A stretch of DNA of 18,348 nt from a virus (taxonomy: Duplodnaviria > Heunggongvirae > Uroviricota > Caudoviricetes). A program made the translations under genes and the position numbers. The notes below the pieces were generated by a model, which was not told where the DNA came from, ran no database searches, and saw only the letters and a list, made by a program, of their open reading frames with translations. Below are positions 1-15,825 of this stretch, one piece after another. The stretch's first letter is position 1. Each line of letters starts with the position of its first letter. The stretch covers positions 1 to 18,348 of IMG/VR virus record IMGVR_UViG_2636415477_000006. One strand, written 5' to 3'.

Positions 1-70
1 GTGGGTCGACAGAATCCATGCCGACACGTTCAGCCAGCTTCCCTGCCAGCGTTGCGAGTGCTGTACTCAT
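1..70 (-). CDS. bet: Bet (Red-beta) single-strand annealing protein, N-terminal 23 codons only; gene continues beyond window start
   Basis: Reverse complement of 1..70 translates MSTALATLAGKLAERVGMDSVDP, which I recognise as the lambda Bet N-terminus; it sits 5 nt downstream of the gam stop in the same operon. Confidence 0.75.
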   Translation of the reverse strand, partial: MSTALATLAGKLAERVGMDSVDP

Positions 71-75
71 CCGTT

Positions 76-372
76 TTATACCTCTGAATCAATATTAATT
101 TGGTGACGGGCGATGGTTTCAGCCATGTAGCGGATGTGTTCTGCCATGCGTTCCTGAAAATCGACATCGTCATCAAATGCACGGGAAATAGCTTTTTTGC
201 TGGCCCCGTGACGTTGCAGATTATCGATGCATAGCGATTCAAACAGGTGTTGGGGCAGACCTTTTTCCAGGTCGTCTGCCAGCTCAGCTTCAGTTTCTTC
301 ACGGGCAATTTGCTGGTAGTGTCGTGCCCATGACTGCTCTTCAATGCGATCGGGGATAAGCCAGGCATTCAT
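76..372 (-). CDS. gam: Gam host-nuclease (RecBCD) inhibitor, short GamS-length form, 98 aa
   Basis: 98-aa ORF is near-colinear with the lambda GamS sequence as I remember it (…QSWARHYQQ…[13 protein letters not shown]…LQRHGASKK…[12 protein letters not shown]…); start ATG overlaps the stop of the upstream gene (ATGA); lies directly upstream of bet. Confidence 0.85.
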
Positions 373-2441
373 GATTTATCACCTCCGAAATTTTCAAGCC
401 TGTTGGCAATCATGATGGCGATATCAGGGATTGCTGGCGCTGTGGCTATACATGCGGGGTTGGCGCACAAACCATAGACGGCGGCAATCACGAGCTGTCT
501 TTTCCAGTCGAGAGTTACTGGCTCAGAATTGGCGTCATCGCCGGACGTATCACTGCCTGGCTCGTTCTGAACAACGGTTTCGCCCTCCTGAGCGGCATCA
601 ACAGAGTTTTCCTGAATGATCTTCTCCTCAGTTTGTGCTGAGTCTTCTCCATCAGCGGCGTCATTTTCTCCAAAAGTTTCTGTGTAAGTGCTATCGCCCA
701 TTACCGCACTACAGTCAGGGCAGTTACCCCCGCCAGTCTGACCACAGACGCGGCAGTTTTTTTCCAGCTCCGGTTGCGCTACTGGCCCTGGCTGTTGCTC
801 TTCTGACCCGTTTTGTTGCGTATCCGGGCTGTTTTGTCCCGCTTCTGGGGCAATTTGTTCCACTTTGGACTGATTCTGGTCCTCAGTGTCGCGAGTCTGG
901 ATCCCCTTCACCCACTTCGGATCAGCAGGGTTACTGATGCCTTCAACGAATTCTCCACGCGAGGCAGCCAGTAATTTGTCGGCATCGACTGGATTTTTTG
1001 GGGGGATGTTTTCCCTGGCTTTATTGAGTTCCTCCCTCAGTTCCTGGTATTTCGTTTCTACAGATGAGACATTTTCCAGTGATTGCGTGTCCTCATTATG
1101 TTTAACTGGAATTTCTTCCACTGATTCAGGCGCTGCCTGTTCATTAGCCATTGTGTCCGATGCTTGTTGCTTTTCTTCATCGCCATGTTTTCCTTCTGCT
1201 GTTCCGCGCTGCGGCATCGGTGCTGATGAGCGACCGCAGGCAATTTCCACGATTTCCGGATCCGGGTTAGCGTGATCGGTTTCGGTCAACACTTTGTTGA
1301 GATATTCAGTCACGCGTGCCGGGATGGCCTCAATGCCGATTGGTGCTTCTTTCACGGAAGCCACCACAATGGCGCGGGAATAATCCAGCCCACCGGGCAT
1401 GGCGATAAATTTGTCGCGAAAAACAGAAAAGGGCGGCTTATTCTCTGACACGATTTCTTCAACGCGTTTTGCGTGTGCTGGGTGCAGGTTATAAATATCC
1501 ACATCCATTGAACGGGCCAGAACGCCGGTGGCTACATCTCGTGCGAGTGATGTCTTATCATGTTTGAATCCTTCACCACGATCGGTAAGATTTCCGCCGC
1601 CAGCGTTAGCACCGGAAGGCGTACGGGTAATGCCTGAAACATAATTTCCGTTCTGCCATTCTTTTGTCAGCAGGCCCTGATCAAGGTAGTCAGTTTTCAT
1701 CCAGGTGGAAATGAACTTGTCGAATTCAGCCGGGCTGATGCGATGATTTGCAGAGTGGGGGAATGCTTTCCCTACAGATTCAGCCAGGCGACTAAGGTGA
1801 TAGTTCGTCAGTTTATCCAGTTCATGATGTGCGGCGCGCACAGCAGTAAGCAGGCTCTGAAGGTAACTGTCCTCTGTGTCCATCTCCATACGGATCACGT
1901 TATTGCGTTGTTCTGGTGTGGCGTGATGCCGGTATTTTCCATCTTCATCTTTGCTGAATAAGAAGAGGTGAAGGAAGCGATGAGTAAGGCTCAGAGTGGC
2001 GACGGGAATTTCACACTCAGAACAGTCATCGTCGCTGTCCGGGGATTCGCTTTTCTCCACATCATCCGGAATAGTTCCGTCCAGGTTATCGTTGTCATCG
2101 CCAGCAGTTGTGGCATCTTCACCGTTGATGTTGTCATCGAAGGGGATAGCCATCATGGTGATGCCATCGTTACCGCCTTTTTCATAGCGGTTGCAGAATT
2201 CAGTATCAAACACGCCTTCCGGTGGAAGGTCATTCACGACGGGGAAATTTACGCGAACGGGTTTTTTGAAATCATCCTCGTCGTAGCCTGCATCGTCCAT
2301 GGCTGCAATGCAGCGGGAAACTGCGACAGAAAGTTTTCTGGCCTCGGTCCAGAAAAAACCGCCTTTGATGCCAAGGCGTTTTCTGACTTTATCGTTTTTT
2401 GCTTCGCAGTGTAGTGCAAAAGTCTGTTTATCAGCGCTCAT
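369..2441 (-). CDS. Large acidic 690-aa protein, possibly related to the non-nuclease N-terminal region of RecE (exonuclease VIII); Cys4 zinc-ribbon-like motif (CRVCG…CPDC) near C-terminus; no recognisable nuclease motifs
   Basis: Long ORF with SD-like AGAGG 10 nt upstream of the ATG at 2441; Asp/Glu-rich low-complexity stretches; a central [16 protein letters not shown]…[13 protein letters not shown]…NLHPAHAKR segment that I associate with RecE; translationally coupled to gam. Confidence 0.5.
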
Positions 2442-2517
2442 TGTATTTAAACCTCTGGCTGGATTAGAATTAGCGGCCCTTTGTCTGATTTCTCCGAATA
2501 CGGTGACGCAGGGAGAA

Positions 2518-2550
2518 ATCCGGTAGCCTGCGCTGCCGGATTTTTATTTC
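2518..2550. terminator. Hairpin with T-run on plus strand and U-rich tail on minus strand; likely terminator after the 128-aa moron gene
   Basis: ATCCGG…CCGGAT outer stem with inner GC-rich pairing, followed by TTTTTATTT on plus strand; on minus strand it lies immediately after the stop at 2549. Confidence 0.4.
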
Positions 2551-2935
2551 AGTGGAAGGTTGCCTGGTTTGCTGTTTTGTGAGTTGTTTTTCCCTTTTCG
2601 TGCTGGCATTCAGGGCAGTCGCACTCGGAATTTTCTCTTGCAAACTCAAGAGCCTGCGCCAGTGTATGGATTTGTTGTACTCCAATGTTGCTTCTGACGA
2701 CTTCACGTGCAGCATGAATATATGGGCTTGGTGTTTTGCCATTTAACCCACATAAAACAAAACGACTGTCCTTATATTCGTTATTTCCAACTTCTGTAAG
2801 CACTGAAAAAGAAAATACAAAGTCGATTTTGTATTCTTTGCATATTTTACTGATGCGTTCTGCAATTTCTTTGAGTTCATTTATTGCATCAGGACTGGTT
2901 TCGGAAAATATTTCATTTTGCGCAAGTTCTTTCAT
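2549..2935 (-). CDS. Hypothetical 128-aa protein with C-terminal Cys cluster (ECDCPECQHEKGK); AT-rich moron-like gene
   Basis: ORF in a locally AT-rich segment (about 2750..2950); weak SD (GGAAAAA) upstream of the ATG; followed by hairpin at 2518..2550. Confidence 0.5.
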   Translation of the reverse strand: MKELAQNEIFSETSPDAINELKEIAERISKICKEYKIDFVFSFSVLTEVGNNEYKDSRFVLCGLNGKTPSPYIHAAREVVRSNIGVQQIHTLAQALEFARENSECDCPECQHEKGKTTHKTANQATFH

Positions 2936-3018
2936 TTTGATTTTTCCGTGATTGATAATTAATGCGGTTTTATTTCGGCTTGTCTGTTACAGATATGGAA
3001 GGTGTATTTTATTACTCG

Positions 3019-3240
3019 TCACAACGACGCTGCTTTTACGGGTAAGCCATCGCGCCCGATGAAAACTTTAATCATGCAGTCGGTAATGCATGTTTTTGTT
3101 GTGAAGTTACGAATATAGAGTTTTCTCTTTTCAATATTGTTTGCTGAAGCGATATATGTCCGACCTTCATGAAGAACATAATCGCCAGGCGTCACGCACT
3201 GACGTGGTATTTCATCAGTTCCGAAGTGATGAGCAATCAT
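3019..3240 (-). CDS. kilR: KilR-like small killing protein (Rac prophage FtsZ inhibitor family), 73 aa
   Basis: Start at the internal ATG at 3240 has a GGAGA SD 6 nt upstream; the product [35 protein letters not shown]…[13 protein letters not shown] matches my memory of Rac KilR in sequence and length. Confidence 0.6.
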
Positions 3241-3696
3241 AATTATCTCCATTTTCACAAATGAACTTTGTTGATGCGGTGCCTGGTGCCTCCAGGTGAC
3301 GTTAACCAGTTAACAACTAACGCCGGGTCAGGGGACGATGACTTTCCGTGACATCCTGTCGGTTTAACTGTTCCGCGTGCGCATAGCCGCATTCACCGCA
3401 TCACAAAATTCACTTTAAAAAGGGCGGACATCAGCAATCGGCAAACCGATATCCGCCAAGGGTTACACACAGCAATGTTGTTATTCACAACCGGAAGCGC
3501 ACGGTCGAAGAAATCTAACGACAATCCTTCTATGGGAAAGAGTCTTCGCCTCGCGCTTTCGTGTAGTACCCTGGCTTTCAGGGTAATGTCTGTTCAGTAA
3601 ACTGAGAGTGCAGGAACTCACCCGTGTCCGGCGCACGATCTCCACCTCACCCGTGGAGAACTCCTCAACTACAAACCCCGTAAGGAGAGTGAATTT

Positions 3697-3906
3697 ATGA
3701 CACAAGAAGAAAAAGTGATGTTTCTGATGCGGCTGGCTGTCGATACTTACAACACACAATTTACGGAGAAAGATATACCTCAAAAGGCAGTTCCTGCCGC
3801 GGTAGATAAGGGCGGTGCTATTGCCGTATTTTACGATGCATTTGAATCATTTTTTAATGAAAAACTCGACGCTGTTAGCGACTTCGGAACATCGAGTAAT
3901 AAATAA
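3697..3906 (+). CDS. Hypothetical 69-aa protein, plus strand, antisense to the leftward operon
   Basis: Strong SD AAGGAGAG 6-7 nt upstream of the ATG; acidic helical-looking product; 3' end overlaps the convergent ORF 3875..4234 by 32 nt. Confidence 0.45.
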   Translation: MTQEEKVMFLMRLAVDTYNTQFTEKDIPQKAVPAAVDKGGAIAVFYDAFESFFNEKLDAVSDFGTSSNK

Positions 3907-4234
3907 CGTTCATTACGGTTCTTAAACAACAATCAGTGGGCTTGATGTTGTTCTTTTCAAGCTCACTTGCCATCACTTCCATTATTCTTGCACTTACACG
4001 AATTATTTGGTGGCTGTAAGCGACGCAACTGTCGCTGATATTGCTGTTTATTTCTATTACTTCATTTTCACTGGCGGCGCTAAATTTGGATATGCCGTTT
4101 CCATTGTCCTGTTTCAGTGCTGTTTCCGCTATCCGGATGCGTTCCTGCGTTGCGGAATTTGGGCTAAGTCGATAAACCTGTCTGGCATCTTCCAGAAGCA
4201 GGGCGATAATGTGCTTCAGTTCTGTTTCATTCAT
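3875..4234 (-). CDS. Hypothetical protein, about 119 aa (start chosen at MNETELK)
   Basis: ORF with GGAG 7 nt upstream of the ATG at 4234; no recognisable motifs. Confidence 0.4.
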   Translation of the reverse strand: MNETELKHIIALLLEDARQVYRLSPNSATQERIRIAETALKQDNGNGISKFSAASENEVIEINSNISDSCVAYSHQIIRVSARIMEVMASELEKNNIKPTDCCLRTVMNVIYYSMFRSR

Positions 4235-4371
4235 AGTTAACTCCGGTAGTTGCAATTTATTAATATCAGGCGGTCAGCTCTTTAAGCTTCTGAACTGCTT
4301 TATTCATTTCATCCATACAGTCGATGAATTCGTCCAGTTTAAGCTGCATTTTTCCGGCGGCCTGAAGAATT

Positions 4372-4656
4372 TCAAGTTTTAAGGGCGCAAGTTTTTTGTT
4401 GTAATCGACGCAGGTTATTAACTCGCGGCCAGTAATATTTTGGCTTGGCACGAGATCCGGGTCTTGAACCTACACAAACTATATAGCTCTCTTCTTTCCT
4501 CGGAAGGCCAGGTGCATCTAGCAGACGGCCTAGTTCGAATTTTTTTACGTTGACACCAGGAGGAATCACCTCGACGATAAACCCGATTTTTACCTTCGTT
4601 ACACCGTTTGATGAGCTTGACCATTTAACTTCATCGTTCAATTTGAACTTCATCAT
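4372..4656 (-). CDS. Hypothetical 94-aa protein; possible frameshifted gene continuing in another frame to 4266
   Basis: GAGG SD 5 nt upstream of ATGATG at 4656; ORF ends just after an A6 run (minus strand, about 4387..4392), where the overlapping 4266..4451 frame continues with a GTG-initiated ORF lacking an SD. Confidence 0.45.
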   Translation of the reverse strand: MMKFKLNDEVKWSSSSNGVTKVKIGFIVEVIPPGVNVKKFELGRLLDAPGLPRKEESYIVCVGSRPGSRAKPKYYWPRVNNLRRLQQKTCALKT

Positions 4657-4661
4657 TAACC

Positions 4662-4967
4662 TCAATCGTAATAAGCCGGAATTGATTTTCCGCGTTGTTT
4701 CTGGCGGCCTGAGCAAGTCACACCCATTTCACTGCGTGGTTTGCGGTAGTAAATACGGTTCTGTTTACTCTCGACTTCTTCTGCCTTCTTGCAGCGAAGG
4801 CTTCCGAGTGATACTGCTTTGTCTGCTCCGACGCAACCAGAGATCTTTAGCGCAATCTTCCGTGTCAGTCTTTCACTACTGCGTCGCTCTGCAATAAGTT
4901 CTTCCCTGCGAGCTTTATAGCGGCTTTTTGCCGTACCTTTGGATTCTTTCCAGATTATGGTTACCAT
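4662..4967 (-). CDS. N: N-like transcription antiterminator (arginine-rich motif near N-terminus), 101 aa
   Basis: AAGGAGA SD 5 nt upstream of the ATG at 4967; N-terminal GTAKSRYKARREELIAERR is an arginine-rich motif resembling P22/lambda N family; first gene downstream of the pL/nutL candidate. Confidence 0.6.
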   Translation of the reverse strand: MVTIIWKESKGTAKSRYKARREELIAERRSSERLTRKIALKISGCVGADKAVSLGSLRCKKAEEVESKQNRIYYRKPRSEMGVTCSGRQKQRGKSIPAYYD

Positions 4968-5078
4968 GATGGTCTCCTTTAAGTGGCTTTGGTGTATGAC
5001 GCGTCGAGGTGTTTTTCTTCTCGATCGCGGCCTTGCAACTGAAATTCGCGTCATCCCCAAAACCACTTAGATTTTGGT

Positions 5079-5118
5079 CTCAACGGTTAGGTTGAGAGTC
5101 CATCAATGTTAAAGAGCC
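5079..5118 (-). promoter_or_regulatory. nutL candidate: boxA (GGCTCTTTAACA) followed 8 nt later by a boxB hairpin (CUCAAC-CUAACC-GUUGAG)
   Basis: Minus-strand reading of 5107..5118 is a near-consensus boxA; inverted repeat at 5079..5096 forms a 6-bp stem with 6-nt loop; lies between the pL candidate and the N-like gene. Confidence 0.5.
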
Positions 5119-5164
5119 GGCCAATCTGTTCCGTTTGGCTTCCAGCGTCCTGCTGTTGAATTGA

Positions 5165-5239
5165 AGATAACCTAAGTTATCTGGTTGTTCAATAACTATA
5201 TTTATCATTTTATGAAAAACGTTATAAATAACTGATAAC
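5165..5239 (-). promoter_or_regulatory. pL/OL candidate: minus-strand promoter TTGAAC-17-TATCTT overlapping operator ATAACctaaGTTAT (5167..5180), with further ATAAC/GTTAT half-sites at 5221..5239
   Basis: -35 (reverse complement of 5187..5192) and -10 (reverse complement of 5165..5170) with 17-bp spacer; same ATAAC-N4-GTTAT dyad as in the cI-cro intergenic region. Confidence 0.45.
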
Positions 5240-5300
5240 AAAAATATTTTATTTTTTGTGGTATCCGCGTGATATTTTCAAGGGGGAAAGGCTGATTGTT

Positions 5301-5522
5301 ATGGGTGATTGCATGTTAATCGAAGGGGAATTTGGTGTGTTGCACCAGCGGGTAGTCGAAATTCTAGGGGTGTCGTTGCTTGAGGTTATTGCTACTGGGG
5401 AAGCTATTTCAGCAGATGCTATTGCGGGAATGATCCGAGTGCTTCACCATGATGAATTGGATGATCTCGCTGTGAAGTTAGCTATAGATGTGTTACTTCA
5501 GGATATGCGACTGTGTAATTAA
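5301..5522 (+). CDS. Hypothetical 73-aa protein on plus strand between OL and cI, convergent with cI
   Basis: ATG at 5301 preceded by AGGGGGAAAGG; only ORF of note on either strand across 5256..5522; AT-rich putative promoter overlapping operator half-sites upstream. The ORF track extends it to a TTG at 5256. Confidence 0.45.
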   Translation: MGDCMLIEGEFGVLHQRVVEILGVSLLEVIATGEAISADAIAGMIRVLHHDELDDLAVKLAIDVLLQDMRLCN

Positions 5523-5523
5523 G

Positions 5524-5552
5524 TAAATAAAACCCGGCACTGGAGCCGGGGG
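5524..5552 (-). terminator. Intrinsic terminator downstream of cI (shared bidirectionally with the convergent plus-strand gene)
   Basis: CCCGGC-actgga-GCCGGG hairpin; on minus strand it is followed by UUUUAUUU; on plus strand by a weaker T tail. Confidence 0.55.
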
Positions 5553-5674
5553 ATTTAGAAATGGCATTTTATGAATTGGCTACTTGGCGAATGGTTTACC
5601 ATCGGTGGTATTGAGCACAATAAAAGGCCGTTCTTCGTGAGTGTTCTTATAGCAAAAGTTCAGTTGGAGTCTGA

Positions 5675-6382
5675 TTACCAGCTATGTGATGACCAGAACA
5701 CTCGCCCTATGATTCTTACGTTTTTGTAGAATTCTTCTCTGTTCATTACTTCATCAGGATACTCTTCGCGGTTTATCGATCTGATAATTACCGATGTTGG
5801 CGTGGCTATGAGCGTTTTTACCCTTAACAAATCAGCTTGGCAAATTGCATATGTTTTACCATCCCTGATGCTCGTATCTTGCGTGTTTACCCCCACCACA
5901 TCACCATCATGGAGTGTTGGCTCCATGCTTTGCCCAACAACCCTGACCAACTTTGCCGCTTTTTCTGGAACTCCCATTTTTTTCAGGTAATAGCGCCTAA
6001 AAACTAGAGAGAATTCTGCGGACTCCTCCAATGCACAACTTCCTCCGCCAGCTGAAAGTGAAATATTTAGAAGGGGGAGCGCAACAAATTCGTCATTATC
6101 ATTTTGATGATCATCCCAGGCGATAGCTTTTAAAGATGATTCCCGAGCATTAGATGGCTCTTCTGCGCTCTGTGGTCTCATTGACCCTATACCAGAGCTT
6201 AGCCATTCAGGGCGAACTCTTAACGCGTTGGCTAATTCGACCATTTTACGTGATCCGGTTGTTTTACCAGATGACATCTTTTGTATGGCTGGTTGTGATA
6301 CCCCCACCATGTCTGCAAGTTGTGCTTGTGACAACCCGGCTGAACTCATGGCGGCATTTAGTCTTTCTGCGAATGTTTTCAT
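5675..6382 (-). CDS. cI: CI-type prophage repressor: N-terminal XRE-family HTH plus C-terminal S24 (LexA-like) autopeptidase domain, 235 aa
   Basis: N-terminal …LSQAQLADMVGVSQPAIQKM… HTH; Ala-Gly-type cleavage region (LSAGGG); GQSMEPT serine motif; divergent from cro across an operator-rich intergenic region. Confidence 0.9.
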   Translation of the reverse strand: MKTFAERLNAAMSSAGLSQAQLADMVGVSQPAIQKMSSGKTTGSRKMVELANALRVRPEWLSSGIGSMRPQSAEEPSNARESSLKAIAWDDHQNDNDEFVALPLLNISLSAGGGSCALEESAEFSLVFRRYYLKKMGVPEKAAKLVRVVGQSMEPTLHDGDVVGVNTQDTSIRDGKTYAICQADLLRVKTLIATPTSVIIRSINREEYPDEVMNREEFYKNVRIIGRVFWSSHSW

Positions 6383-6492
6383 ACCTGTAATCTATAACCA
6401 CGGTTATCAAAAGTAAAACAACAATTGTTATTGCCCTGGTGTATAACTCATGTTATTTTTGGTTATGCTTTATTTGCTGTAGAGGTATGCTC
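6383..6492. promoter_or_regulatory. OR/pRM/pR candidate region: three dyad operators (ATAACcacgGTTAT 6394..6407; AACAATTGTT-centred site about 6417..6431; ATAACtcatGTTAT 6444..6457)
   Basis: Repeated ATAAC/GTTAT half-sites spaced about 24-26 bp centre to centre; plausible minus-strand pRM TTGTTT-18-TTATAG ending just before the leaderless-like cI ATG; the plus-strand pR is not pinned down. Confidence 0.5.
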
Positions 6493-6717
6493 ATGAATTT
6501 AGTGATTCAGCGAGCCTTGAATATTGTTGGCAGTCAAAAACGACTTGCAGCTGATTGCGGCGTATCACAGCCCGCTGTTCATAAATGGTTGCGAGGCGGA
6601 AAAGTTTCTCCTGAAAAAGTTTTCGCTATCGTTAATGCCACCAATGGTCAGGTTAAGGCTTACGAAATTCGCCCGGACTTACCGCACCTGTTTCCTCATC
6701 CGAACCAGGCTGAATAA
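6493..6717 (+). CDS. cro: Cro-like HTH regulator, 74 aa
   Basis: GAGG SD 7 nt upstream of the ATG at 6493; product has a …LAADCGVSQPAVHKW… HTH; divergent from cI. Confidence 0.8.
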   Translation: MNLVIQRALNIVGSQKRLAADCGVSQPAVHKWLRGGKVSPEKVFAIVNATNGQVKAYEIRPDLPHLFPHPNQAE

Positions 6718-6724
6718 GTAACAC

Positions 6725-6765
6725 CGCTCTTTAACATTGCTGGTCGTTCACCTCTAACAGGGTGA
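6725..6765 (+). promoter_or_regulatory. nutR candidate: boxA CGCTCTTTAACA (6725..6736) plus boxB-like hairpin UCACC-ucuaacag-GGUGA (6748..6765)
   Basis: Exact boxA consensus 8 nt after the cro stop; hairpin loop shares CUAAC with the nutL boxB loop. Confidence 0.5.
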
Positions 6766-6833
6766 GCAAACATCAGTGGCAAACCCATTGGGGATTGCCG
6801 CTTAACCCCATATCAATATAGGAAAATTAACAA

Positions 6834-7130
6834 ATGTCACAAACAAGTTACAGCAAACTGTCACAGCGCGATATCGATCGCGCTGAAACGGATTTACTTA
6901 TCAACCTGTCAGCTCTGACGCAAAGGGGACTGGCGAAGATGATTGGCTGCCATGAATCGAAGGTCAGTCGTACCGACTGGCGATACATCGCGGCGATTTT
7001 ATGCGCGTTTCAGATGGCATCTGATATCAGTCCGATCAGCCGGGCTTTCCAGCATGCCATTAACGTTCATGCAAATAAAAAACGTCCGGTTGGGGCCGGA
7101 CGTTCTGAGCAAATCCTGATGAATATCTGA
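6834..7130 (+). CDS. cII: CII-like transcriptional activator, 98 aa
   Basis: AGGA SD; C-terminal …NKKRPVGAGRSEQILMNI resembles the lambda CII C-terminus (…NKKRPAATERSEQIQMEF) from memory; position immediately after cro/nutR. Confidence 0.8.
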   Translation: MSQTSYSKLSQRDIDRAETDLLINLSALTQRGLAKMIGCHESKVSRTDWRYIAAILCAFQMASDISPISRAFQHAINVHANKKRPVGAGRSEQILMNI

Positions 7131-7193
7131 TATTCAGGCAGGGCATGGAGCAATACACGGGAATAATTCTGCCACATCTGGAAGAATTTCGCC

Positions 7194-7350
7194 AGCAACA
7201 ACACCAACCGCAGCAGCCTGAAGCCGATTGGGTTAACCCGGAGATACCGGGACCGTCTGTGAAGATGTGCAGTCACACCAATGTGCAGTCACACCAACCG
7301 CAGCAGCCTGAAGCCGATTGGGTTAACCCGGGAGATACCGGGACCGTCTG
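7194..7350. repeat. Two direct copies of a ~60-bp dyad-rich element (7194..7259 and 7284..7350) separated by a perfect 16-bp tandem duplication (ATGTGCAGTCACACCA x2, 7265..7296)
   Basis: Direct sequence comparison: GCAACAAC(A/G)CCAACCGCAGCAGCCTGAAGCCGATTGGGTTAACCCGG(G)AGATACCGGGACCGTCTG; contains the palindrome GGGTTAACCC and CCCGG/CCGGG inverted arms. Confidence 0.85.
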
Positions 7351-7383
7351 CGGTATGGAGTAAATCTTGTATGCGAGGGGACT

Positions 7384-8460
7384 ATGCGTAATTACGCAAC
7401 AATTTCACCTCAGTTCTGGTTAGGCGAAACAGGGAGAAAACTAAGGAAGTCTGGTCCGGAATGTATGGTAGTGGCGTTGTATATGATGACCTCGCCTCAT
7501 TCCAATATGCTGGGCCTTTATTACCTGCCTGTTTTGTACATTGCTCACGAAACCGGACTTGATCCTGAAGGGGCTTCTAAGGGGCTTCAAATGGCTTGCG
7601 AGGCTGGTTTTTGCAGCTATGACCATGATTCTGAGGTTGTATGGGTGCATGAAATGGCAGCATGGCAGGTTGGTGAATCGCTGAAACCTGGCGATAACCG
7701 TTGTGCTGGGGTAAGAAATGAATATTCCGCGTTGCTGGAAAATCCTTTTTTATCATCCTTTTATGATAGATATAAGGATGATTTCCACCTGGATGTCAGA
7801 CGTGAATCATGTCGGAAAATTGAAGCCCCTTCAGAGCCCCTTTCAAGCCAAGAACAGGAACAAGAACAGGAAAGGGATAAAACCCTTCTGGTCCATGGCG
7901 AAAAAATCGCCACGGACCCGCAGGGGGATTTTTGTCCTGTTCTGACTGAACGTCCAGGACCAGCTGGCACGACACCGGAAGCAGATTCCGGGCGTTGTGT
8001 GCAGCAGGTGCTGATCGTCGAACCGGAGCAACAACGCCAACCGCAGCAGCCTGAAGCCGATTCCGCGATGAGCGGGAAGCCGATTGGGTTAACCCGGGCG
8101 ATGCCGGGACCGTCTGCGGGACGAGTTGATTATCCTGACGTGTTCGAACGGGTCTGGCGTGAATATCCGCATCGGGCAGGGTCAAACCCGAAGAAATCCG
8201 CGTTCAATGCCTGGAGGGCCAGATTACGCGAAGGGGTGTCACCGGATGTCGTGCTGGATGGCGTGAGGCGTTACGCAAGATACCTGGAGGCTACCGGGAA
8301 AGCGGGAACTGAATTTGTTCAGCAGGCATCGACGTTTTTTGGCCCGAACAGGAATTTCGAAAATCCGTGGTCGCTGCCGAAGGCTGGCGCAGTCAGCCTG
8401 CGTTGCGTGAATCACATTTCTGAACCGGACACCGAAATTCCGCCGGGTTTCAGGGGGTAA
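7384..8460 (+). CDS. Putative phage replication initiation protein (O-like/primosomal type), 358 aa, containing a third copy of the upstream repeat
   Basis: Precedes a DnaC-like loader with a 6-nt gap; central acidic SQEQEQEQE linker; position equivalent to lambda O; family assignment by context only. Confidence 0.7.
   Translation: MRNYATISPQFWLGETGRKLRKSGPECMVVALYMMTSPHSNMLGLYYLPVLYIAHETGLDPEGASKGLQMACEAGFCSYDHDSEVVWVHEMAAWQVGESLKPGDNRCAGVRNEYSALLENPFLSSFYDRYKDDFHLDVRRESCRKIEAPSEPLSSQEQEQEQERDKTLLVHGEKIATDPQGDFCPVLTERPGPAGTTPEADSGRCVQQVLIVEPEQQRQPQQPEADSAMSGKPIGLTRAMPGPSAGRVDYPDVFERVWREYPHRAGSNPKKSAFNAWRARLREGVSPDVVLDGVRRYARYLEATGKAGTEFVQQASTFFGPNRNFENPWSLPKAGAVSLRCVNHISEPDTEIPPGFRG
8027..8118. 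repeat. Third copy of the ~60-bp element, inside the replication gene, carrying a 23-bp internal insertion
   Basis: GAGCAACAACGCCAACCGCAGCAGCCTGAAGCCGATT … GGGTTAACCCGGGCGATGCCGGGACCGTCTGCGG matches copies at 7194..7350. Confidence 0.8.
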
Positions 8461-8466
8461 TCAGCC

Positions 8467-9207
8467 ATGAAAAACATTTCGACAGGAGGGATTCTTGAAC
8501 GGGTGCGCCGTCTGGCACCACCGCACGTGGCAGCACCGTTCCGGACGACCGACGAATGGCGGGAATGGCAACTGGCTGAGGGCCGTAAGCGCAGCGAGGA
8601 AATTAACCGCCTGAATCATCAGGCGCGGGTTGAAAAAATCCTGAACCGTTCGGGCATCCAGCCGCTTCACAGGAAGTGCTCATTCGGGAACTACCGGGTG
8701 CAGAACGACGGTCAGCGCCATGCTCTGAGTCAGGCAAAATCCATCGCGGCAGAGCTGCATACCGGCTGCACGAATTTCGTGTTCAGCGGTAAACCTGGCA
8801 CCGGGAAAAATCACCTTGCAGCAGCGATTGGCAACTGGCTAATGGCGAAGGGGAGAAGCGTGATTATCGTCACCGTGTCCGATGTCATGAGTGTGTTGCA
8901 TGACGGCTACGACAACGGCAAGTCCGGGGAAAAATTTTTACAGGAGCTTTGTGGAGTTGACCTTCTGGTCCTTGACGAAATTGGCATCCAGCGTGAGACG
9001 AAAAACGAGCAGGTGGTACTGCACCAGATTGTTGACCGCCGGACGGCATCACTGCGCAGTGTCGGGATGCTGACAAACCTGAATCATGCCGCAATGAGCA
9101 CGCTTCTTGGTGAGAGGATTATGGACCGGATGACCATGAACGGTGGTCGTTGGGTGAATTTTAACTGGGAGAGCTGGCGGTCAAACGTTGGACGTCAGGG
9201 TATGTGA
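8467..9207 (+). CDS. DnaC/IstB-like AAA+ helicase loader (phage replication protein), 246 aa
   Basis: Walker A GKPGTGKNHLA and Walker B LLVLDEIG; follows the initiator gene. Confidence 0.85.
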   Translation: MKNISTGGILERVRRLAPPHVAAPFRTTDEWREWQLAEGRKRSEEINRLNHQARVEKILNRSGIQPLHRKCSFGNYRVQNDGQRHALSQAKSIAAELHTGCTNFVFSGKPGTGKNHLAAAIGNWLMAKGRSVIIVTVSDVMSVLHDGYDNGKSGEKFLQELCGVDLLVLDEIGIQRETKNEQVVLHQIVDRRTASLRSVGMLTNLNHAAMSTLLGERIMDRMTMNGGRWVNFNWESWRSNVGRQGM

Positions 9208-9232
9208 GAATTTTTGACGAGGTAAATTTTCG

Positions 9233-10003
9233 ATGGAAACCGTATTGCATGCACTGAAAGCGATGGGAAAAGCCAATTCTGTTGAACTGGCGGCGCGGCT
9301 TGATATCAGCCGTGAAGAAGTTCTCAACGAACTGTGGGAACTCAAAAAAAATGGCGTTGTTGATAAAACGGGTCACACCTGGTTTCTGGCTGTCGAAGGT
9401 GAATCCCAGGTAACCGAAGAGCGGCCAGTAAAATCTGAAACACAGGATATGCTGACCGAAGAGGTCGCTCCAAAAGTTAGCGCTGACATGATGATTGAGT
9501 TTATCTCTCAGGAGGGGGCTAAAACCTGTGAAGAAATAGCGGGTAAGTTCGGAGTTACCACTCGCAAGGTTGCTTCCACGCTGGCGGTGGTAACCGCAAC
9601 GGGGCGGCTGGCACGCGTTAATCAGAACGGTAAATTTCGTTACTGCATGCCGGGGGGTAATTTACCAGCAGATCCGAAAACCGCGCCGGTAACGGAAAAT
9701 GATGGTAAGGCCTTTCCTCAGCCAGCAGGTGCTGCGTTACCAGTCCGGGAAGCCGCAACACAGGAAGAAATTAAAACAGAAACTGTGGCGGACATTGTGC
9801 AGTCGTTGCCATCGTTTACCGAAACGCAAGCAGATGAGCTGATTTTTCCGTCCCTGCGCAGGGCAAACCTGGCGCTGCGCAGGGCGAAAAGTGATGTTCA
9901 GAAGTGGGAGCGAGTCTGCGCCGCGCTGCGGGAGCTGAATAAACACCGGGATATTTTCAGTTCGATTGCTGATATTCCGGTTCATTCACCGACAACAAAG
10001 TGA
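9233..10003 (+). CDS. Hypothetical 256-aa protein with N-terminal winged-helix-like domains
   Basis: GAGG about 10 nt upstream of the ATG; N-terminal …ANSVELAARLDISREEVLNELWELKKNGVV… and a second …GAKTCEEIAGKFGVTTRKVASTLAV… HTH-like segment. Confidence 0.55.
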   Translation: METVLHALKAMGKANSVELAARLDISREEVLNELWELKKNGVVDKTGHTWFLAVEGESQVTEERPVKSETQDMLTEEVAPKVSADMMIEFISQEGAKTCEEIAGKFGVTTRKVASTLAVVTATGRLARVNQNGKFRYCMPGGNLPADPKTAPVTENDGKAFPQPAGAALPVREAATQEEIKTETVADIVQSLPSFTETQADELIFPSLRRANLALRRAKSDVQKWERVCAALRELNKHRDIFSSIADIPVHSPTTK

Positions 10004-10018
10004 TCTCCGGAGGTGCTT

Positions 10019-10450
10019 ATGACAAGAGCATTTACACCAGAAGAGCGGGAAAAAATTAAGGGGCTGATCGTGGAATTCGTACGCCTTAACGGACGAGGCA
10101 CGATTCGGCAGTTATCGGATGAAATTGGTGTCAGTCATGCGTCTGTCGGTCGTTTATGCATGGAGCTGGCCGCCAGTGGTGATGTTTACAATTCCGGTTA
10201 CGGAGTATTCCCGTCTGAACAGGCTCGTAAGGACTGGCAAAATGCCCGCAAAAAACTCTCAAGGGCAAAGTCGAAGAAACCGGTTGTCGTTGATCCAGAC
10301 CTTATCCGGGCATTACCAGATGGGGAAATACGGCGCTACGACAGACGCTACAACACAATTTGTCGCGAGTGCCGTAACAGCGAAACGATGCAGCGTGTGC
10401 TGGCATTCTGGCGAGGGAGTGCAGAGGGATTGATGTTCTCCCCGTCGTGA
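10019..10450 (+). CDS. Hypothetical HTH protein, about 143 aa
   Basis: GGAGGTG SD upstream of the ATG at 10019; HTH-like …GTIRQLSDEIGVSHASVGRL…; basic C-terminal half. Confidence 0.5.
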   Translation: MTRAFTPEEREKIKGLIVEFVRLNGRGTIRQLSDEIGVSHASVGRLCMELAASGDVYNSGYGVFPSEQARKDWQNARKKLSRAKSKKPVVVDPDLIRALPDGEIRRYDRRYNTICRECRNSETMQRVLAFWRGSAEGLMFSPS

Positions 10451-10482
10451 ATGACGGGGGCTTACGTGTTCAGAAAAGTGAT

Positions 10483-11157
10483 TCATATAGAGGCTGAATC
10501 TGATCTTTTTTGTTCACGTCTGGCTTCCACCATTGCAGGCAGAGTGAAGGCGTAGACTAAAAACATTTCGGTAAAACTCAGGATCTGGCTTGCCTCAATT
10601 GGTGTGAAAACTTCATCTGTATGAACTGCTTTATTGGCATCAATTCGTACAATATGAGCCCATTCCTTCATCTGTTCAGTGATCAGGCCTTTTTTGTAAA
10701 TCATCTGAATACGTTGCGACAGCGATTCTTTTCCTGCTTCATCGCCGAGCAGTTTTTTCGTGGAGATATCGAGGACTCTGCGACAAAGAATAACCACTGT
10801 GTCGTACCGCCTCCTCTGTAAATCCTCTTTTGCCTCAACAAAAGTACGGTCTGCAACCGGGGGCGTATATTCTGGTGCGGTAATTTTTTTGACCACAGGA
10901 TAGATCTTGCGGAAACGGTACTGGCTATTTCCTGAAATCAGAATATCGAGGTCTTTTTTCTGGCTTTCCGCCATGGGACCGTGATAGTGGTCTGATGGGA
11001 TTTCAACAATAGCAACACCTCCTCGATGACAACTTCTGCATACAAAAGCGACGTTAAAAAAAGGTGTTTTTTCAATTTGTTTTTCGGCAAATGCCTCAAT
11101 AACAGCTCGCTCTTTTAAACAGTGCGGGCATGTGATATCAAAGGAGACTAAACCCAT
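10483..11157 (-). CDS. Zinc-ribbon (CPHC…CRSC) protein with C-terminal alpha-helical domain bearing an R-x3-N-x3-H motif (HEPN/DUF4145-like); candidate abortive-infection/defence effector, 224 aa
   Basis: Start at MGLVSFD has GAGGAA SD 5 nt upstream; N-terminal CxxC-x21-CxxC; C-terminal …EWAHIVRIDANKAVHTDE…; start codon overlaps the divergent plus-strand gene within CCATGG. Confidence 0.55.
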   Translation of the reverse strand: MGLVSFDITCPHCLKERAVIEAFAEKQIEKTPFFNVAFVCRSCHRGGVAIVEIPSDHYHGPMAESQKKDLDILISGNSQYRFRKIYPVVKKITAPEYTPPVADRTFVEAKEDLQRRRYDTVVILCRRVLDISTKKLLGDEAGKESLSQRIQMIYKKGLITEQMKEWAHIVRIDANKAVHTDEVFTPIEASQILSFTEMFLVYAFTLPAMVEARREQKRSDSASI

Positions 11158-11401
11158 GGATATTCCTCGCGAAATTAAAGAAATTAACGAAATCATTGAG
11201 GTTACTGATCGCCCCGAGTTTACCCTCATGCGTCGTTATGAAACAGGAACCGACGAACAAAAATACATCATGGTTGCAGCATTGGCTGTGATGGCGATAG
11301 AAAGGGAGCGAAGGGAAAAGGACGTAATGGTTATTCCTGAGAGAAATGATTCACCGGATTTGAGATGGCAGGAGCCGGAGTGGGATGTGGTAATCCGGTG
11401 A
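11156..11401 (+). CDS. Hypothetical acidic 81-aa protein, divergent from and start-overlapping the zinc-ribbon/HEPN-like gene
   Basis: AAGGAGA SD 7 nt upstream of the ATG at 11156; charged helical product. Confidence 0.4.
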   Translation: MDIPREIKEINEIIEVTDRPEFTLMRRYETGTDEQKYIMVAALAVMAIERERREKDVMVIPERNDSPDLRWQEPEWDVVIR

Positions 11402-11455
11402 TTGATATTTCTCTGGGGTAAAGCGCCGCCAGAATGACGGCGCGGTAGTGGAGAG

Positions 11456-11764
11456 TTAAACGAAGCGGATCTGGAGTTTTTTCCCTGTAGCACGGGCGAA
11501 TTTTTTCAGTGTGGCAAATGATGGGCCGCTTGTACCTGATGCAAGATTGCTTTCCATTCTGGTTATCGCAGTCGCTTTTGTTCCCATACGTTCAGCAACT
11601 TCAGCCTGGGTTAAGCCAGCTTCTTTTCGTGCTGCCAGCATTTCATCAAGTAGTGCGAATTCATCGGCGATGGCGTCGTATTCTGCTTTTACTGCGGGGT
11701 TAGACAACATTTTTTCTACCATTTCATCGTGTGTCATGGTAGGTGGGGTACGTTTACCAGTCAT
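11456..11764 (-). CDS. higA: HigA-like antitoxin (XRE-family HTH), 102 aa
   Basis: C-terminal HTH …LTQAEVAERMGTKATAITRME…; start overlaps the end of the upstream toxin gene by 11 nt; toxin-first order typical of hig modules. Confidence 0.7.
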   Translation of the reverse strand: MTGKRTPPTMTHDEMVEKMLSNPAVKAEYDAIADEFALLDEMLAARKEAGLTQAEVAERMGTKATAITRMESNLASGTSGPSFATLKKFARATGKKLQIRFV

Positions 11765-12095
11765 GCTTAACCTCCTTCATTCTGGTTTCAGCTTTTCTAA
11801 GCTCGGCAGGTGGAGTTTTTTGCGTTTTCTTTACAAAGCTATGCAACATAATGATTCGCTTTCCTTTTAGCGTGCAGTAAAAAACACGCCCTATGCCTTC
11901 CGAGCCCTTAAGGCGGATTTCAAACAAACCGTCGCCAAATGCCTCTGTATGCGGGGAACCAAGATTAGCTCCGTAAATACGCATTTTCTCCGTGTACCGA
12001 ATGTACCGGGCTTGTAAGGTCTCAGGAAGAGAAAGGATCTCAGCTTCAACCTCGTCACTGTAGTATTCGATAATGTAGTTTATGAGAGTAAACAT
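11754..12095 (-). CDS. higB: HigB/Gp49-like toxin of the RelE/ParE superfamily, about 113 aa
   Basis: Product …FGDGLFEIRLKGSEGIGRVFYCTLKGKRIIMLHSFVKKTQKTP… fits the Gp49/HigB-type pattern; paired with an HTH antitoxin; start set at MFTLINY, downstream of a TTGTCG-17-TATATA minus-strand promoter. Confidence 0.7.
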   Translation of the reverse strand: MFTLINYIIEYYSDEVEAEILSLPETLQARYIRYTEKMRIYGANLGSPHTEAFGDGLFEIRLKGSEGIGRVFYCTLKGKRIIMLHSFVKKTQKTPPAELRKAETRMKEVKHDW

Positions 12096-12109
12096 AACAA
12101 ATTTGTTAT
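12094..12109. promoter_or_regulatory. Perfect 16-bp palindrome ATAACAAATTTGTTAT overlapping the higB start codon and -10 region; candidate HigA operator
   Basis: Sequence is its own reverse complement; located at the higBA promoter. Confidence 0.45.
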
Positions 12110-12125
12110 ATACATTCAAGGTATG

Positions 12126-12241
12126 TTGACGACAACACATATCCGGGATTATATTCTTCGCACGCCAGCAAAATCTGGCGTCGGGATTAGGAACCCCGGA
12201 TAGAAACCGCGACAGAGACACGCCGCGAGCGTGTTTTTTAT
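12126..12241 (+). ncRNA. Candidate small RNA or terminated leader: promoter TTGACG-17-TTATAT (12126..12154), about 80-nt transcript with hairpin CGCCAGcaaaatCTGGCG and intrinsic terminator (12218..12241)
   Basis: Near-consensus -35/-10 with 17-bp spacer; two hairpins; terminator ACACGC-cgcga-GCGTGT followed by TTTTTTATT; no ORF is involved. Confidence 0.35.
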
Positions 12242-12402
12242 TGTCGTATGCACACGCACATCTGAATTATGGTGGGGCGTATAGGGGAGCTGAAAAGCTC
12301 GCCGGTTGGTTTCCCGGTAGTTCCTAACCCTGTACGTCTCGCCACCCGATGATTAGGAACCTGACGGTGGTGATAGTTTAGAAACCACTCGAGGGCGTCA
12401 TT

Positions 12403-13074
12403 ATGACAACTCAAGTTTCTGTTGAAACACTCTCCACGATTACTTACAAGCAGATCCCCGTTATCACTACCGAACTTTTGGCGCACCTTTACGGCACAGA
12501 AGCTATTCGTATTCGCCAGAATCACCACGAAAACAAAGGTCGTTTCATTGAGGAAAAACACTTCTTCAAACTTGAAGGTGAAACTTTACGTGAGTTCAAG
12601 CACAGAGTAGCTTTTAACTACTCTGTGAAAATTGCCCGTAACGTTCGCTCCCTCATCCTATGGACAGAACGCGGCGCAGCCCGTCATGCAAAAATGCTCG
12701 AAACCGATCGGGCGTGGGAAGTGTTCGAAAAACTGGAAGACTGCTATTTCAGCCAGGGAAAAACAACACAAACCGAACAGCAGTCGCAGATTCAGCCACA
12801 ATTCACAGCCGAGGAAATCATCCTCCTTTGCTACATGCAACTCTGGATGGAAAAAGCCCAGGACCTTAGCAAGCAGCTGTACCCCATAATGAAAGAGCTG
12901 AACTCCTCATACACGAACAAGCTGTATGACATTGCGTTTGAGACTATCTACATGGTGACGAAGAACAGAGACGCGCTACTAAGGGAGGTAACACGTCTCG
13001 ACATGTCAAGTTCCGTTATCCAGCGGGCCATGCCAATGCTGAAAAGCCTGCGGGCAAGACAATTTGAATTCTGA
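12403..13074 (+). CDS. ORF6N/KilA-N-type domain protein (antirepressor-like), 223 aa
   Basis: N-terminal …ITYKQIPVITTELLAHLYGTEAIRIRQNHHENKGRFIEEKHFFKL… fits the ORF6N pattern from memory; GAGGG upstream of the ATG. Confidence 0.65.
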   Translation: MTTQVSVETLSTITYKQIPVITTELLAHLYGTEAIRIRQNHHENKGRFIEEKHFFKLEGETLREFKHRVAFNYSVKIARNVRSLILWTERGAARHAKMLETDRAWEVFEKLEDCYFSQGKTTQTEQQSQIQPQFTAEEIILLCYMQLWMEKAQDLSKQLYPIMKELNSSYTNKLYDIAFETIYMVTKNRDALLREVTRLDMSSSVIQRAMPMLKSLRARQFEF

Positions 13075-13128
13075 AACTAAAGGAGCTTCGGCTCCTTTTT
13101 TGTTGGGAAAATCCAGTGAGAGGGAATA

Positions 13129-13539
13129 ATGAACCAGACTATCTTCCTCCGAAGTAAGCAGCAGCAACAATTCGCCATTAACGCCATCCTTGCAACAACT
13201 CTCGATAAAGACAAACCCGTTACGATCCGTATCACCGATTACAAGCGTAATCTCGCTCAAAATGCAAAATTTCACGCGATGGTCGCTGATATATCCCGCC
13301 AGGTTAAGTGGTGCGGCAGGTGGCTAAAACCAGAACAGTGGAAAGTTTTGTTAATCAGCGGTCATGCCGTGGCGACAAAACAGGAAGCTGATGTTTTGCC
13401 AGGTCTTGAAGGTGAATACGTCAATATCCGCGAAAGCAGTGCGCAAATGAGCGTGAAGCGTATGGCAAGCCTGATTGAGTACACAACATCCTGGGCCGTG
13501 GATCAGGGTGTCAGATTTACCGACAGGAGGTACGAATGA
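13129..13539 (+). CDS. ninB: NinB (Orf-family recombination mediator), 136 aa
   Basis: Resembles lambda NinB from memory (…[33 protein letters not shown]…); nin-region position; overlaps the next gene (ATGA). Confidence 0.8.
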
Positions 13540-13727
13540 GACGACAGCGACGAAGCATCACCGATATCGTCTGTGAAAACTGCAATTACCTTCCAACCAA
13601 ACGCTCCCGAAATAAACCCAGGCCAGTCCCCAAAGAATCTGATGTTAAAACCTTCAACTATACGGCTCACCTGTGGGATATCCGGTGGCTAAGGCGTCGA
13701 GCAAGATTTAATTGTCACTCCGGATAG
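13536..13727 (+). CDS. ninE: NinE-like protein, 63 aa
   Basis: [27 protein letters not shown]…[22 protein letters not shown] closely resembles lambda NinE from memory. Confidence 0.75.
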
Positions 13728-13747
13728 CCTACTGCATGAGGAATAAG

Positions 13748-14041
13748 ATGATGACAAACCTACGCAAAGAAGCGCGCGGCAGAGAATGCCAGGTACGGAT
13801 TTATGGCGTATGCAATGGCAACCCTGAAACTACAGTTCTGGCGCATTACCGAATGGCTGGAATTTGCGGAACGGGAACAAAGCCAGATGATCTGTTGGCT
13901 GCATGGGCCTGTAGTGACTGCCATAATGAAATCGATCGCCGTACTCGCATTCTCGACAACAACGACGCCAGACTTTACCACCTGGAAGGCGTGATCAGGA
14001 CGCTGGCGATATTGCTGAAGGAGGGGAAGATTAAGTCATGA
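13748..14041 (+). CDS. DUF1364/YbcO-like phage protein (putative nuclease), about 97 aa
   Basis: GAGGAA SD 4 nt upstream of ATGATG at 13748; Cys-rich …CQVRIYGVCNG…CSDCHNEID…; located just upstream of rusA as in DLP12-type nin regions. Confidence 0.6.
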   Translation: MMTNLRKEARGRECQVRIYGVCNGNPETTVLAHYRMAGICGTGTKPDDLLAAWACSDCHNEIDRRTRILDNNDARLYHLEGVIRTLAILLKEGKIKS

Positions 14042-14400
14042 ATGAATATGAGTTTGTGCTTCCCTGGCCGCCGACGGTGAATACCTACTGGCGAAGACGG
14101 GGAAGCCAGTACTACATCAGCGATAAAGGCCAGAAATACCGAAAAGACGTACAGCAAATCATCCGGCAACTCAGATTAGACATTTTCACTAAATCACGAC
14201 TTCGCATCACAATTATTGCTGAACCACCAGATTCCCGCCGTCGCGACCTCGATAACATCCTGAAAGGTTTACTCGACTCTCTTATCCACGCCGGATTTGC
14301 GGAAGACGACGTGCAATTCGATGACATTCGCGTAATTCGCGGCGTGAAAGTGCTTGGCGGTAGAGTGGGGATAAAAATCACCGAACTGGAGAACATATGA
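14038..14400 (+). CDS. rusA: RusA Holliday-junction resolvase, 120 aa
   Basis: MNEYEFVLPWPPTVNTYWRRRG… with conserved acidic residues (…DLDNILKGLLDSL…DDVQFDDIRV…); overlaps neighbours by 4 nt. Confidence 0.85.
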   Translation: MNEYEFVLPWPPTVNTYWRRRGSQYYISDKGQKYRKDVQQIIRQLRLDIFTKSRLRITIIAEPPDSRRRDLDNILKGLLDSLIHAGFAEDDVQFDDIRVIRGVKVLGGRVGIKITELENI

Positions 14401-14597
14401 ACGCCACAATTCAAACAATACCGGAATTGCTTATCCAGGCACGAGGCAATATGACTGAAGTTTCACGAAAACTGAACTGTAATCGTGCTACGGTCAGAAA
14501 ATATGTCGGTGATAAAGAAGGCAAACGGCACGCCGTCGTCAACGGTGTCCTTATGGTTCACCGTGGATGGGATAAGGGGAAAGCTACTGATGCGTGA
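14397..14597 (+). CDS. ninH: NinH-like protein, 66 aa
   Basis: …[52 protein letters not shown]… resembles lambda NinH from memory. Confidence 0.75.
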
Positions 14598-14970
14598 TAT
14601 TCAGCAGGTGCTTGAACGCTGGGGTGCATGGGTGGCAAATAATCATGAGGATGTGAGCTGGTCGCCCATTGCTGCCGGATTTAAGGGGCTGATCCCCGAA
14701 AAAGTAAAATCACGTCCACAGTGCTGTGATGATGACGCGATGATTATATGCGGGTGTATGGCCCGCCTTAACAGAAACAACAGTGATTTGCATGAGTTGC
14801 TGGTTGATTGCTACGTGCGGGGGATGACGTTTATGTCACTGGCGCGAAAACATGAATGCTCTGATGGGACTATCGGAAAGCGGCTGCAAAAAGCTGAAGG
14901 TGTTATTGAAGGAATGCTGATGATGCTGGATGTTCGGCTGGAGATGGACAGATATGTGCAGCGCCTGTGA
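14590..14970 (+). CDS. Q: Late-gene antiterminator Q (short Q family, phage 82/21-like size), 126 aa
   Basis: Start ATG at 14590 overlaps the ninH stop; Cys-rich …[16 protein letters not shown]…; position after ninH and before a terminator-rich region. The ORF track's longer 14485 start is rejected. Confidence 0.7.
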
Positions 14971-15104
14971 TAGCAGGCGCTTGTCGTTCACTATGTGAAG
15001 TATGTCAATTTGTGAACGTTATGCTATTTACTTTACAGGACAAGGACGTAAGAGTTATCTACCGTTTAACCGCAGAGATACAACAACAATGAACAGGGGG
15101 CAAA

Positions 15105-15698: not shown

Positions 15699-15825
15699 AG
15701 CGTCGTAGAACCCCGGTCCTCTTGTTTGATTCCATACCTGAATAAAGTGGGATGCCAAAAAAGTATTTTACGTACGTAAAAATCTGCATATCATGATAAG
15801 AGTGGTTACATTGCCACGCAGCCGA

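Follow-up and report, generated by a model that had tools for sequence, protein, structure and literature searches.

The window analysed here is the whole 18,348-nucleotide stretch of the Caudoviricetes record IMGVR_UViG_2636415477_000006 (positions 1 to 18,348), and our subject is a gene for a 690-residue protein near its left end (369-2441, the whole open reading frame (ORF) with its stop codon). This gene and the features around it lie on the minus strand. Its source is a lambda-like Escherichia coli prophage, in which the gene is placed in the early-left operon. We find that the protein belongs to the RecE-N-terminal-region superfamily and is nuclease-less. It quite possibly serves as a non-catalytic accessory or scaffold factor in phage DNA-end handling and recombination, a role that we put forward tentatively. 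An E. coli gene already annotated as ‘RecE family exodeoxyribonuclease’ matches ours at 100% identity; in RefSeq and GenBank, the name is either this one or ‘exodeoxyribonuclease VIII’. The exonuclease name is not supported by the evidence; it is a systematic mis-annotation of nuclease-less proteins.

The relationship to RecE can be followed along most of the protein. Pfam PF06630 matches residues 55-197 (E=1.3e-12), and the NCBIfam equivalog model for RecE (NF007259) aligns residues 1-637 with profile positions 1-598 of 877. The score of 740.1 bits falls below the curated equivalog cut-off of 1269 because the last third of the profile is unmatched. In BLASTP searches, residues 51-601 are 60% identical to the RecE of Rac-SA53, and residues 1-611 are 87% identical to a 1049-residue RecE containing both PF06630 and the PF12684 nuclease; the alignment with protein P0119 ends at residue 611. 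A first-pass annotation, made from the sequence alone, had proposed such protein and profile searches on the strength of a RecE-N-like ‘central block’. The likeness is confirmed, and its extent had been set too small, since homology covers residues 1-611. At the DNA level, the gene is near-identical to the full-length recE of strain PEC240 over residues 106-511, with a synonymous difference (pS) of 0.005 over residues 140-410. This near-identity indicates that window-type and full-length recE genes exchange segments. Judging from the shared DNA, they probably form one exchanging gene pool and hence have one N-region function.

What the protein lacks is the PD-(D/E)XK exonuclease domain (PF12684; approximately residues 564/606-866 of RecE). 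As anticipated in the first-pass annotation, none was detected in the 690-residue protein by Pfam, NCBIfam, the AlphaFold2 model or fold searches. No PD-(D/E)XK family was matched in the profile scan even at E=10, and a sequence search against solved structures returned no match. The annotation had also taken a zinc ribbon to replace the nuclease. That part does not stand: the same CxxC...CxxC ribbon is found in full-length RecE proteins, and thus it is RecE's own, located upstream of the nuclease, and no nuclease substitute. A recT partner is not adjacent to the gene; the downstream genes are gam, bet (of the lambda Red-beta type) and exo. RecE itself has its nuclease activity confined to the C-terminal domain, and within the full-length protein the N region boosts RecET linear-linear recombination (PMC11611040).

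Where RecE continues into its nuclease, the window protein ends in a conserved two-helix motif (residues 642-690; 372-518) that is absent from full-length RecE. Structure prediction of the C-terminus, proposed earlier as a check, gave two helices (residues 646-659 and 668-685, with predicted local distance difference test scores (pLDDT) of 58-70) and no nuclease. The last ~45 residues are nearly invariant in E. coli and Shigella family members, and the linker before them varies. The motif, QQLxIAALQGLCANPA..., closes 22 divergent clusters (50% identity) across Enterobacteriaceae. Its consensus is QQLTIAALQGLCANPA...(D/E)(I/L)PxMA, and by phmmer and alignment the window protein carries the QQLxxAAxxGxCANPA... 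form; L650, A653, A654, G657, N661 and P662 are invariant in the 22 tails. Overall, the motif-bearing proteins are just 21-31% identical to the window protein, with the exception of P0132 (65%). A phmmer search with the tail matched 25 or more representatives, and a word-based protein search with it found family fragments only. The first-pass annotation was thus correct in seeing a hydrophobic tail in the place of the nuclease, but this tail is conserved in 22 clusters, and only two of the 22 tails have a transmembrane-like hydropathy; both junction debris and a membrane anchor are thereby set aside.

Two other origins of the tail were considered and rejected. It is not a leftover of other phage DNA, as blastn and tblastn searches of 50,697 phage records matched only the same gene (six records, representing four phages, two of them in duplicate). 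Nor is it the Pfam domain YdfE_C: protein P0233 has YdfE_N and YdfE_C but no tail, and the K-12 YdfE fragment comprises the N-terminal ~256 residues only. The motif also occurs in the products of small ORFs (54-91 residues). In a Serratia quinivorans prophage (L030 5001-5240), it stands alone in a 79-residue protein at the same map position, and ‘AAFLAALQGLCANPAY’ is present in an unrelated-looking 91-residue protein (P0286). From these sequence occurrences, the motif may be an independent mini-domain.

The gene has been maintained. More than 100 near-full-length clusters at 90% identity (663-700 residues, with PF06630 as the sole domain) keep an intact frame at 76-99% identity, and the gene is present in 82 of 5426 complete E. 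coli genomes. Ratios of nonsynonymous to synonymous change (dN/dS) were calculated by the Nei-Gojobori method for the window gene against the 75/02 Stx and P0132 alleles, giving 0.20-0.23 overall, 0.10-0.14 for the core and 0.15-0.22 for the tail. The three linkers that could be scored (residues 411-456, 512-558 and 593-641) gave 0.17-0.92, with values of 0.48-0.92 in two of them. By these comparisons the gene is intact and widespread, with purifying selection evident on the core and the tail and not on the linkers.

To place the protein in its family, 1.84 billion cluster representatives were searched exhaustively with HMMER; only 204 relatives emerged. Of the relatives listed, 84 have 450 residues or more; their C-terminal end is the tail motif in 22, a RecE-type nuclease in 20, a DEDD (Pfam Rv2179c-like) 3'-5' exonuclease in 14, a further domain of ~260 residues in nine and none of these in 19. 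The N region is therefore fused to exonucleases in 34 of the 84, and this census of alternative C-termini marks it as a reusable module attached to DNA-end enzymes. The relatives with the ~260-residue domain include P0233, P0138, P0200, P0210 and P0270 (L025 5001-7361), which combine a RecE-N/YdfE core with a beta-rich/helical region. That region has a sub-threshold match to Pfam Rad52_Rad22 (E=0.0024), and a Sipho_Gp157 gene is next in L025; these proteins may be annealase fusions. In P0135 (703 residues), the RecE N region is joined, just past the first CxxC of the ribbon, to a sequence that by eye looks RecT-type; this would be an in-frame RecE-RecT fusion without a nuclease.

The nuclease-less architecture is not tied to Red genes. 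In E. coli and Shigella, gam-bet-exo follows the gene in the window, PhiR5_2, 75/02 Stx and the P0132 and P0118 contexts. Beyond E. coli, contexts were scanned in one genome per species, yielding eight loci in Buttiauxella, Citrobacter, Lelliottia and Cedecea with motif-bearing proteins of 473-635 residues. In seven of these, the motif protein is followed only by small ORFs, an excisionase and an integrase; in the eighth (L019), the contig ends ~0.9 kb past the gene. None of the eight showed similarity to Gam, Bet, Exo or RecT, and the metagenomic or genomic contexts of P0195, P0220, P0162 and P0227 adjoin xis-int with no gam, bet, exo or recT. Such Red-free contexts indicate an architecture of long standing that does not depend on the Red genes; the window is one lambdoid mosaic where the two lie side by side.

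Within the window, the junction with the Red genes can be read closely. The stop codon of the 690-residue gene and the start codon of gam overlap in an ATGA (369-372), as the first-pass annotation had noted. The Shine-Dalgarno sequence of gam, GGAGGTGA (379-386), is located in the final codons of the large gene, within F-G-G-D. The gam gene (76-372) lies upstream of bet and encodes 98 residues, matched over positions 1-98 of 98 by Pfam Gam (PF06064, E=4.8e-65); the product is 86% identical to the Gam of 933W. Five nucleotides past gam, a lambda-type bet begins with MSTALATLAGKLAERVGMDSVDP at position 70, again as predicted; its first 23 codons (1-70) run to the window edge and the remainder lies outside. 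Two stop codons in the gam frame immediately precede the ATG, so that only a product of GamS length is possible, with no GamL-type extension. The earlier claim of a GamS-only Gam is therefore sound, although 98 residues is the usual annotation in lambdoid phages such as 933W. Also upheld is the idea that the 3' end of the large gene replaces the GamL extension, as 933W keeps GamL-like DNA at that position. Near window position 330, 42 nucleotides (~14 codons) into gam, the DNA ceases to resemble that of 933W-type phages.

The overlap with gam is not fixed at four nucleotides, as other alleles make clear. In P0118-type E. coli alleles (L028 7033-7055), the large ORF extends 23 nucleotides into gam and has an altered C-terminal end, …ENFGVTDDEYMPNF, and in the P0132 context there is a gap of two nucleotides between the large gene and gam. 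The ‘DDEYMPNF’ ending of the P0118-type alleles was considered as a mimic of an SSB tail and rejected, as it is simply the 23-nucleotide read-through into gam.

The wider gene order can be taken from closely related prophages and phages. Window positions 300-2500 are 100% identical to a prophage of E. coli SCU-104 adjoining ynfH/dmsD, in which the order is int, DUF4222, exo, bet, gam, the 690-residue gene, a gene for a 128-residue protein and a Rac-type kil, continuing to cI/cro. The cultured phage PhiR5_2 has the identical gene order at 98% identity, and complete bet and exo genes are present past gam in both. Shigella phages 75/02 Stx and POCJ13 and phage phiSTEC1589-Stx1c are further carriers of the 690-residue gene. 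The order is thus a mosaic, with a Rac-type kilR and the RecE-N-like gene upstream and lambda-type gam-bet-exo downstream. Comparison with Rac and lambda, which the first-pass annotation had suggested for mapping a Rac/lambda junction, bears out a Rac-like kilR side and a lambda-like gam-bet-exo side; the 933W DNA similarity ends inside gam. The junction as the origin of the nuclease-less architecture does not hold up, given the Red-free xis-int contexts. A promoter and terminator scan of window positions 1-3600 gave no informative result.

Two neighbours complete this part of the operon. The 128-residue protein (2549-2935), encoded between the Rac-type kil and the 690-residue gene, belongs to PHROG 2016 (function unknown) and has a C-terminal CxC...CxxC. 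Its position is roughly that of racC in Rac, and it is also found in PhiR5_2, 75/02 Stx and the P0118 context. A KilR-type FtsZ inhibitor is encoded at 3019-3258 (NCBIfam NF008465, E=5.6e-46); its type is that of Rac rather than lambda Kil, emphasizing how Rac-like the right flank of the recombination module is.

The 690-residue protein is acidic, with an isoelectric point (pI) of 4.6, 124 aspartate and glutamate residues versus 68 lysine and arginine residues, and a net charge of -17 across residues 101-150. An AlphaFold2 model built on 97 relatives has a mean pLDDT of 75.9, with ~175 residues below 50, and contains four acidic disordered linkers. It begins with an alpha/beta domain, the RecE-type N-terminal module (residues 1-105; 2127-2441; pLDDT 77 for residues 1-10, then 94-98), followed by acidic linker 1 (residues 106-139; 2025-2126; pLDDT 41-54), which varies among family members. 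Next is a helical core (residues 140-410; 1212-2024; pLDDT 89-98), the most conserved region over the 97 representatives and one common to RecE, YdfE-type and tail-bearing proteins. In this model, the N-terminal domain and the core are predicted as two confidently folded domains without a known fold. A helical segment (residues 457-511; 909-1073; helices 458-477 and 487-494; dN/dS 0.11-0.12) is conserved in RecE and some YdfE-type proteins. The CxxC-x7-CxxC zinc ribbon (residues 559-592, cysteines 563, 566, 574 and 577; 666-767) is weakly modelled (pLDDT 50-71) and is occupied in only ~10 of the 97 representatives. Acidic linker 4 (residues 593-641; 519-665; pLDDT 35-45; dN/dS 0.48-0.55), within which similarity to RecE ends at about residue 611, leads into the two-helix motif.

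Divergent family members carry the precomputed Pfam labels YdfE_N (PF27430) and YdfE_C (PF27432). Proteins near-identical to ours have PF06630 as their only precomputed Pfam label, and the models PF27430 and PF27432 were not run directly on the 690-residue protein. In K-12, ydfE (b1577; L015 6079-6999) is a pseudogene cut by IS2. It corresponds to an N-terminal fragment of P0175, an 823-residue protein of a Qin-like prophage (98.8% identity over 256 residues), and the C-terminus of P0175 is a DEDD 3'-5' exonuclease. BLAST found no similarity between K-12 YdfE and the window protein, which thus lacks the YdfE-type N-terminal ~250 residues. From this comparison, YdfE-type and RecE-type N-terminal modules are alternatives placed before a shared core.

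How might the free-standing protein act? In the accessory role that we tentatively prefer, the RecE-type N region would be a unit in its own right. Sister lineages have it covalently joined to the 5'-3' RecE nuclease, the DEDD 3'-5' exonuclease or a further domain, and the window version would instead act in trans beside Exo, Bet and Gam. The two-helix tail would stand in for the oligomeric nuclease domain by providing self-association or docking. If full-length RecE is a guide, end-to-end (linear-linear) recombination would be favoured. A non-catalytic DNA-end unit is suggested because the N region is attached to two kinds of exonuclease and a further domain, because it swaps DNA with full-length recE and because within RecE it boosts end-to-end recombination. 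We also count in favour of this role the RecE N homology of ~600 residues, the missing nuclease, the purifying selection and the place in a recombination module. A broader proposal, which we consider somewhat doubtful, is that the N region and the QGLCANP two-helix motif together make up a phage protein of new fold that is autonomous: needing no phage nuclease or annealase, it would act either on DNA ends or on the machinery of host recombination and repair. The RecE, DEDD and other fusions would then have been derived from it by adding an effector. If true, this would define a new functional class of the lambdoid early-left operon, and the free-standing form could solve the long-unknown role of the RecE N-terminus.

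The main rival is a host-directed factor unrelated to recombination: it could act as a decoy for, or inhibit, a nuclease, repair complex or defence system of the host, with folded domains that would bind the target and long acidic linkers that could mimic nucleic acid. We judge it unlikely, though it has real points in its favour: the stand-alone loci at xis-int in Buttiauxella, Citrobacter, Lelliottia and Cedecea and around P0195, P0220, P0162 and P0227, the low pI with its long stretches of disorder, and the fact that a recent paper leaves such proteins out of recombination modules (PMC12315714). However, the same N region is exonuclease-fused in two-fifths of the long representatives and, as part of full-length RecE, stimulates linear-linear recombination by RecET (PMC11611040), the window phage already has an inhibitor of RecBCD in Gam, and the acidic linkers that would do the mimicry are the least conserved parts, with the high dN/dS given above in two of three. 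A cryptic enzyme is less probable again. Here, the core would have a new catalytic activity on DNA or nucleotides, and the name ‘exonuclease’ would be accidentally near the truth. Its best-conserved stretch is indeed non-helical, modelled with confidence, and bears a glycine-rich motif (T274, A280, G281-283 and R288), and fold searches did not recognize the fold. Yet there is no conserved acidic or histidine cluster over the 97 representatives, no nuclease family or fold was matched, and the nuclease activity of RecE resides in its C-terminal domain alone (PMC11611040).

A decaying remnant of recE, the nuclease domain and recT having given way to a lambda gam-bet-exo block, would account for the Rac-type kilR upstream, the lambda-type Red genes downstream and the end of 933W-type similarity 42 nucleotides inside gam. 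We think this very improbable in view of the intact frame in more than 100 clusters, the dN/dS of ~0.2 overall and 0.15-0.22 in the tail, a tail motif common to such divergent proteins and the presence of the architecture where Red genes are absent. Least credible of all is a membrane protein anchored by its hydrophobic C-terminal tail. The 19-residue Kyte-Doolittle maximum of the window protein does reach 1.75 (residues 650-668), but only two of the 22 family tails reach 1.6 (median 1.05), on which ground we rejected the tail as a transmembrane anchor. Moreover, the first helix has ~14 residues and is followed by the conserved N-P and an acidic loop, and the remaining protein is strongly acidic and soluble-like.

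Ever since RecET recombineering began, it has been an open question what the ~600-residue N-terminal region of RecE does. It is full-length RecE that makes direct linear-linear cloning efficient. Here, selection keeps the RecE N region as a free-standing protein, while the same region is elsewhere joined to several DNA-end enzymes. The first-pass annotation had called this a ‘natural experiment’: the free-standing form is real, but it was already in the record, as the gene and its kind are known from RefSeq, from four sequenced phages (Stx phages among them) and as nuclease-less ‘RecE-2’ proteins of lambdoid phages with unknown roles, described in that recent paper (Genome Res 2025, PMC12315714). 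Our literature search found no functional study of YdfE or the 690-residue protein. Our analysis contributes the modular picture, with alternative C-termini on one N region, including the previously unremarked conserved motif. The carrier PhiR5_2 has E. coli K-12 MG1655 as its recorded host, and the question should thus suit simple genetics.

Some further features of the window lie away from this locus. A tandem pair of the Rfam small RNA STnc100 (16118-16309 and 16585-16794, plus strand; 145 and 138 bits) is upstream of an ORF for a DUF1737+SASA (NanS-p-like) esterase (16996-18117). An isrK (69 bits) and a C4 antisense RNA (66 bits) stand back to back at 12162-12349 (plus strand) in an immunity-I-like arrangement, directly 5' of an ORF6N/P22_AR_C antirepressor-like ORF (12403-13074). 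A gene for a DUF4145 protein (10483-11229, minus strand) runs counter to the replication genes and may be a moron or defence gene.

Among known systems, the ‘RecE-2’ proteins match ours by description in PMC12315714, being RecE-related, from the lambdoid early-left operon and without a nuclease domain in structure prediction; the paper does not count them as recombination-module members and, as a difference, does not mention the C-terminal motif. The YdfE-type proteins of Qin-like prophages share the conserved core (approximately residues 240-430 of our protein) and the prophage map position, and many have the same C-terminal motif (e.g. P0195, P0220, P0222 and P0227), but their own N-terminal ~250 residues (YdfE_N/YdfE_C) are unrelated by BLAST to the window protein. 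With the RecE of Rac (exodeoxyribonuclease VIII), the window protein shares the N-terminal region through about residue 611, the core motifs, the zinc ribbon and the map position (early-left operon, downstream of a Rac-type kilR); it differs in having, instead of a nuclease domain and recT, the two-helix motif of ~45 residues and then gam-bet-exo. With the lambda Red module (exo-bet-gam), the locus shares gam and bet directly downstream of the 690-residue gene, and exo is next in the identical SCU-104 prophage. In lambda and 933W, kil, cIII and ssb/ea10 are upstream of gam and GamL-type DNA precedes it, whereas in the window the 690-residue gene takes the place of the GamL-type DNA and overlaps the start of gam.

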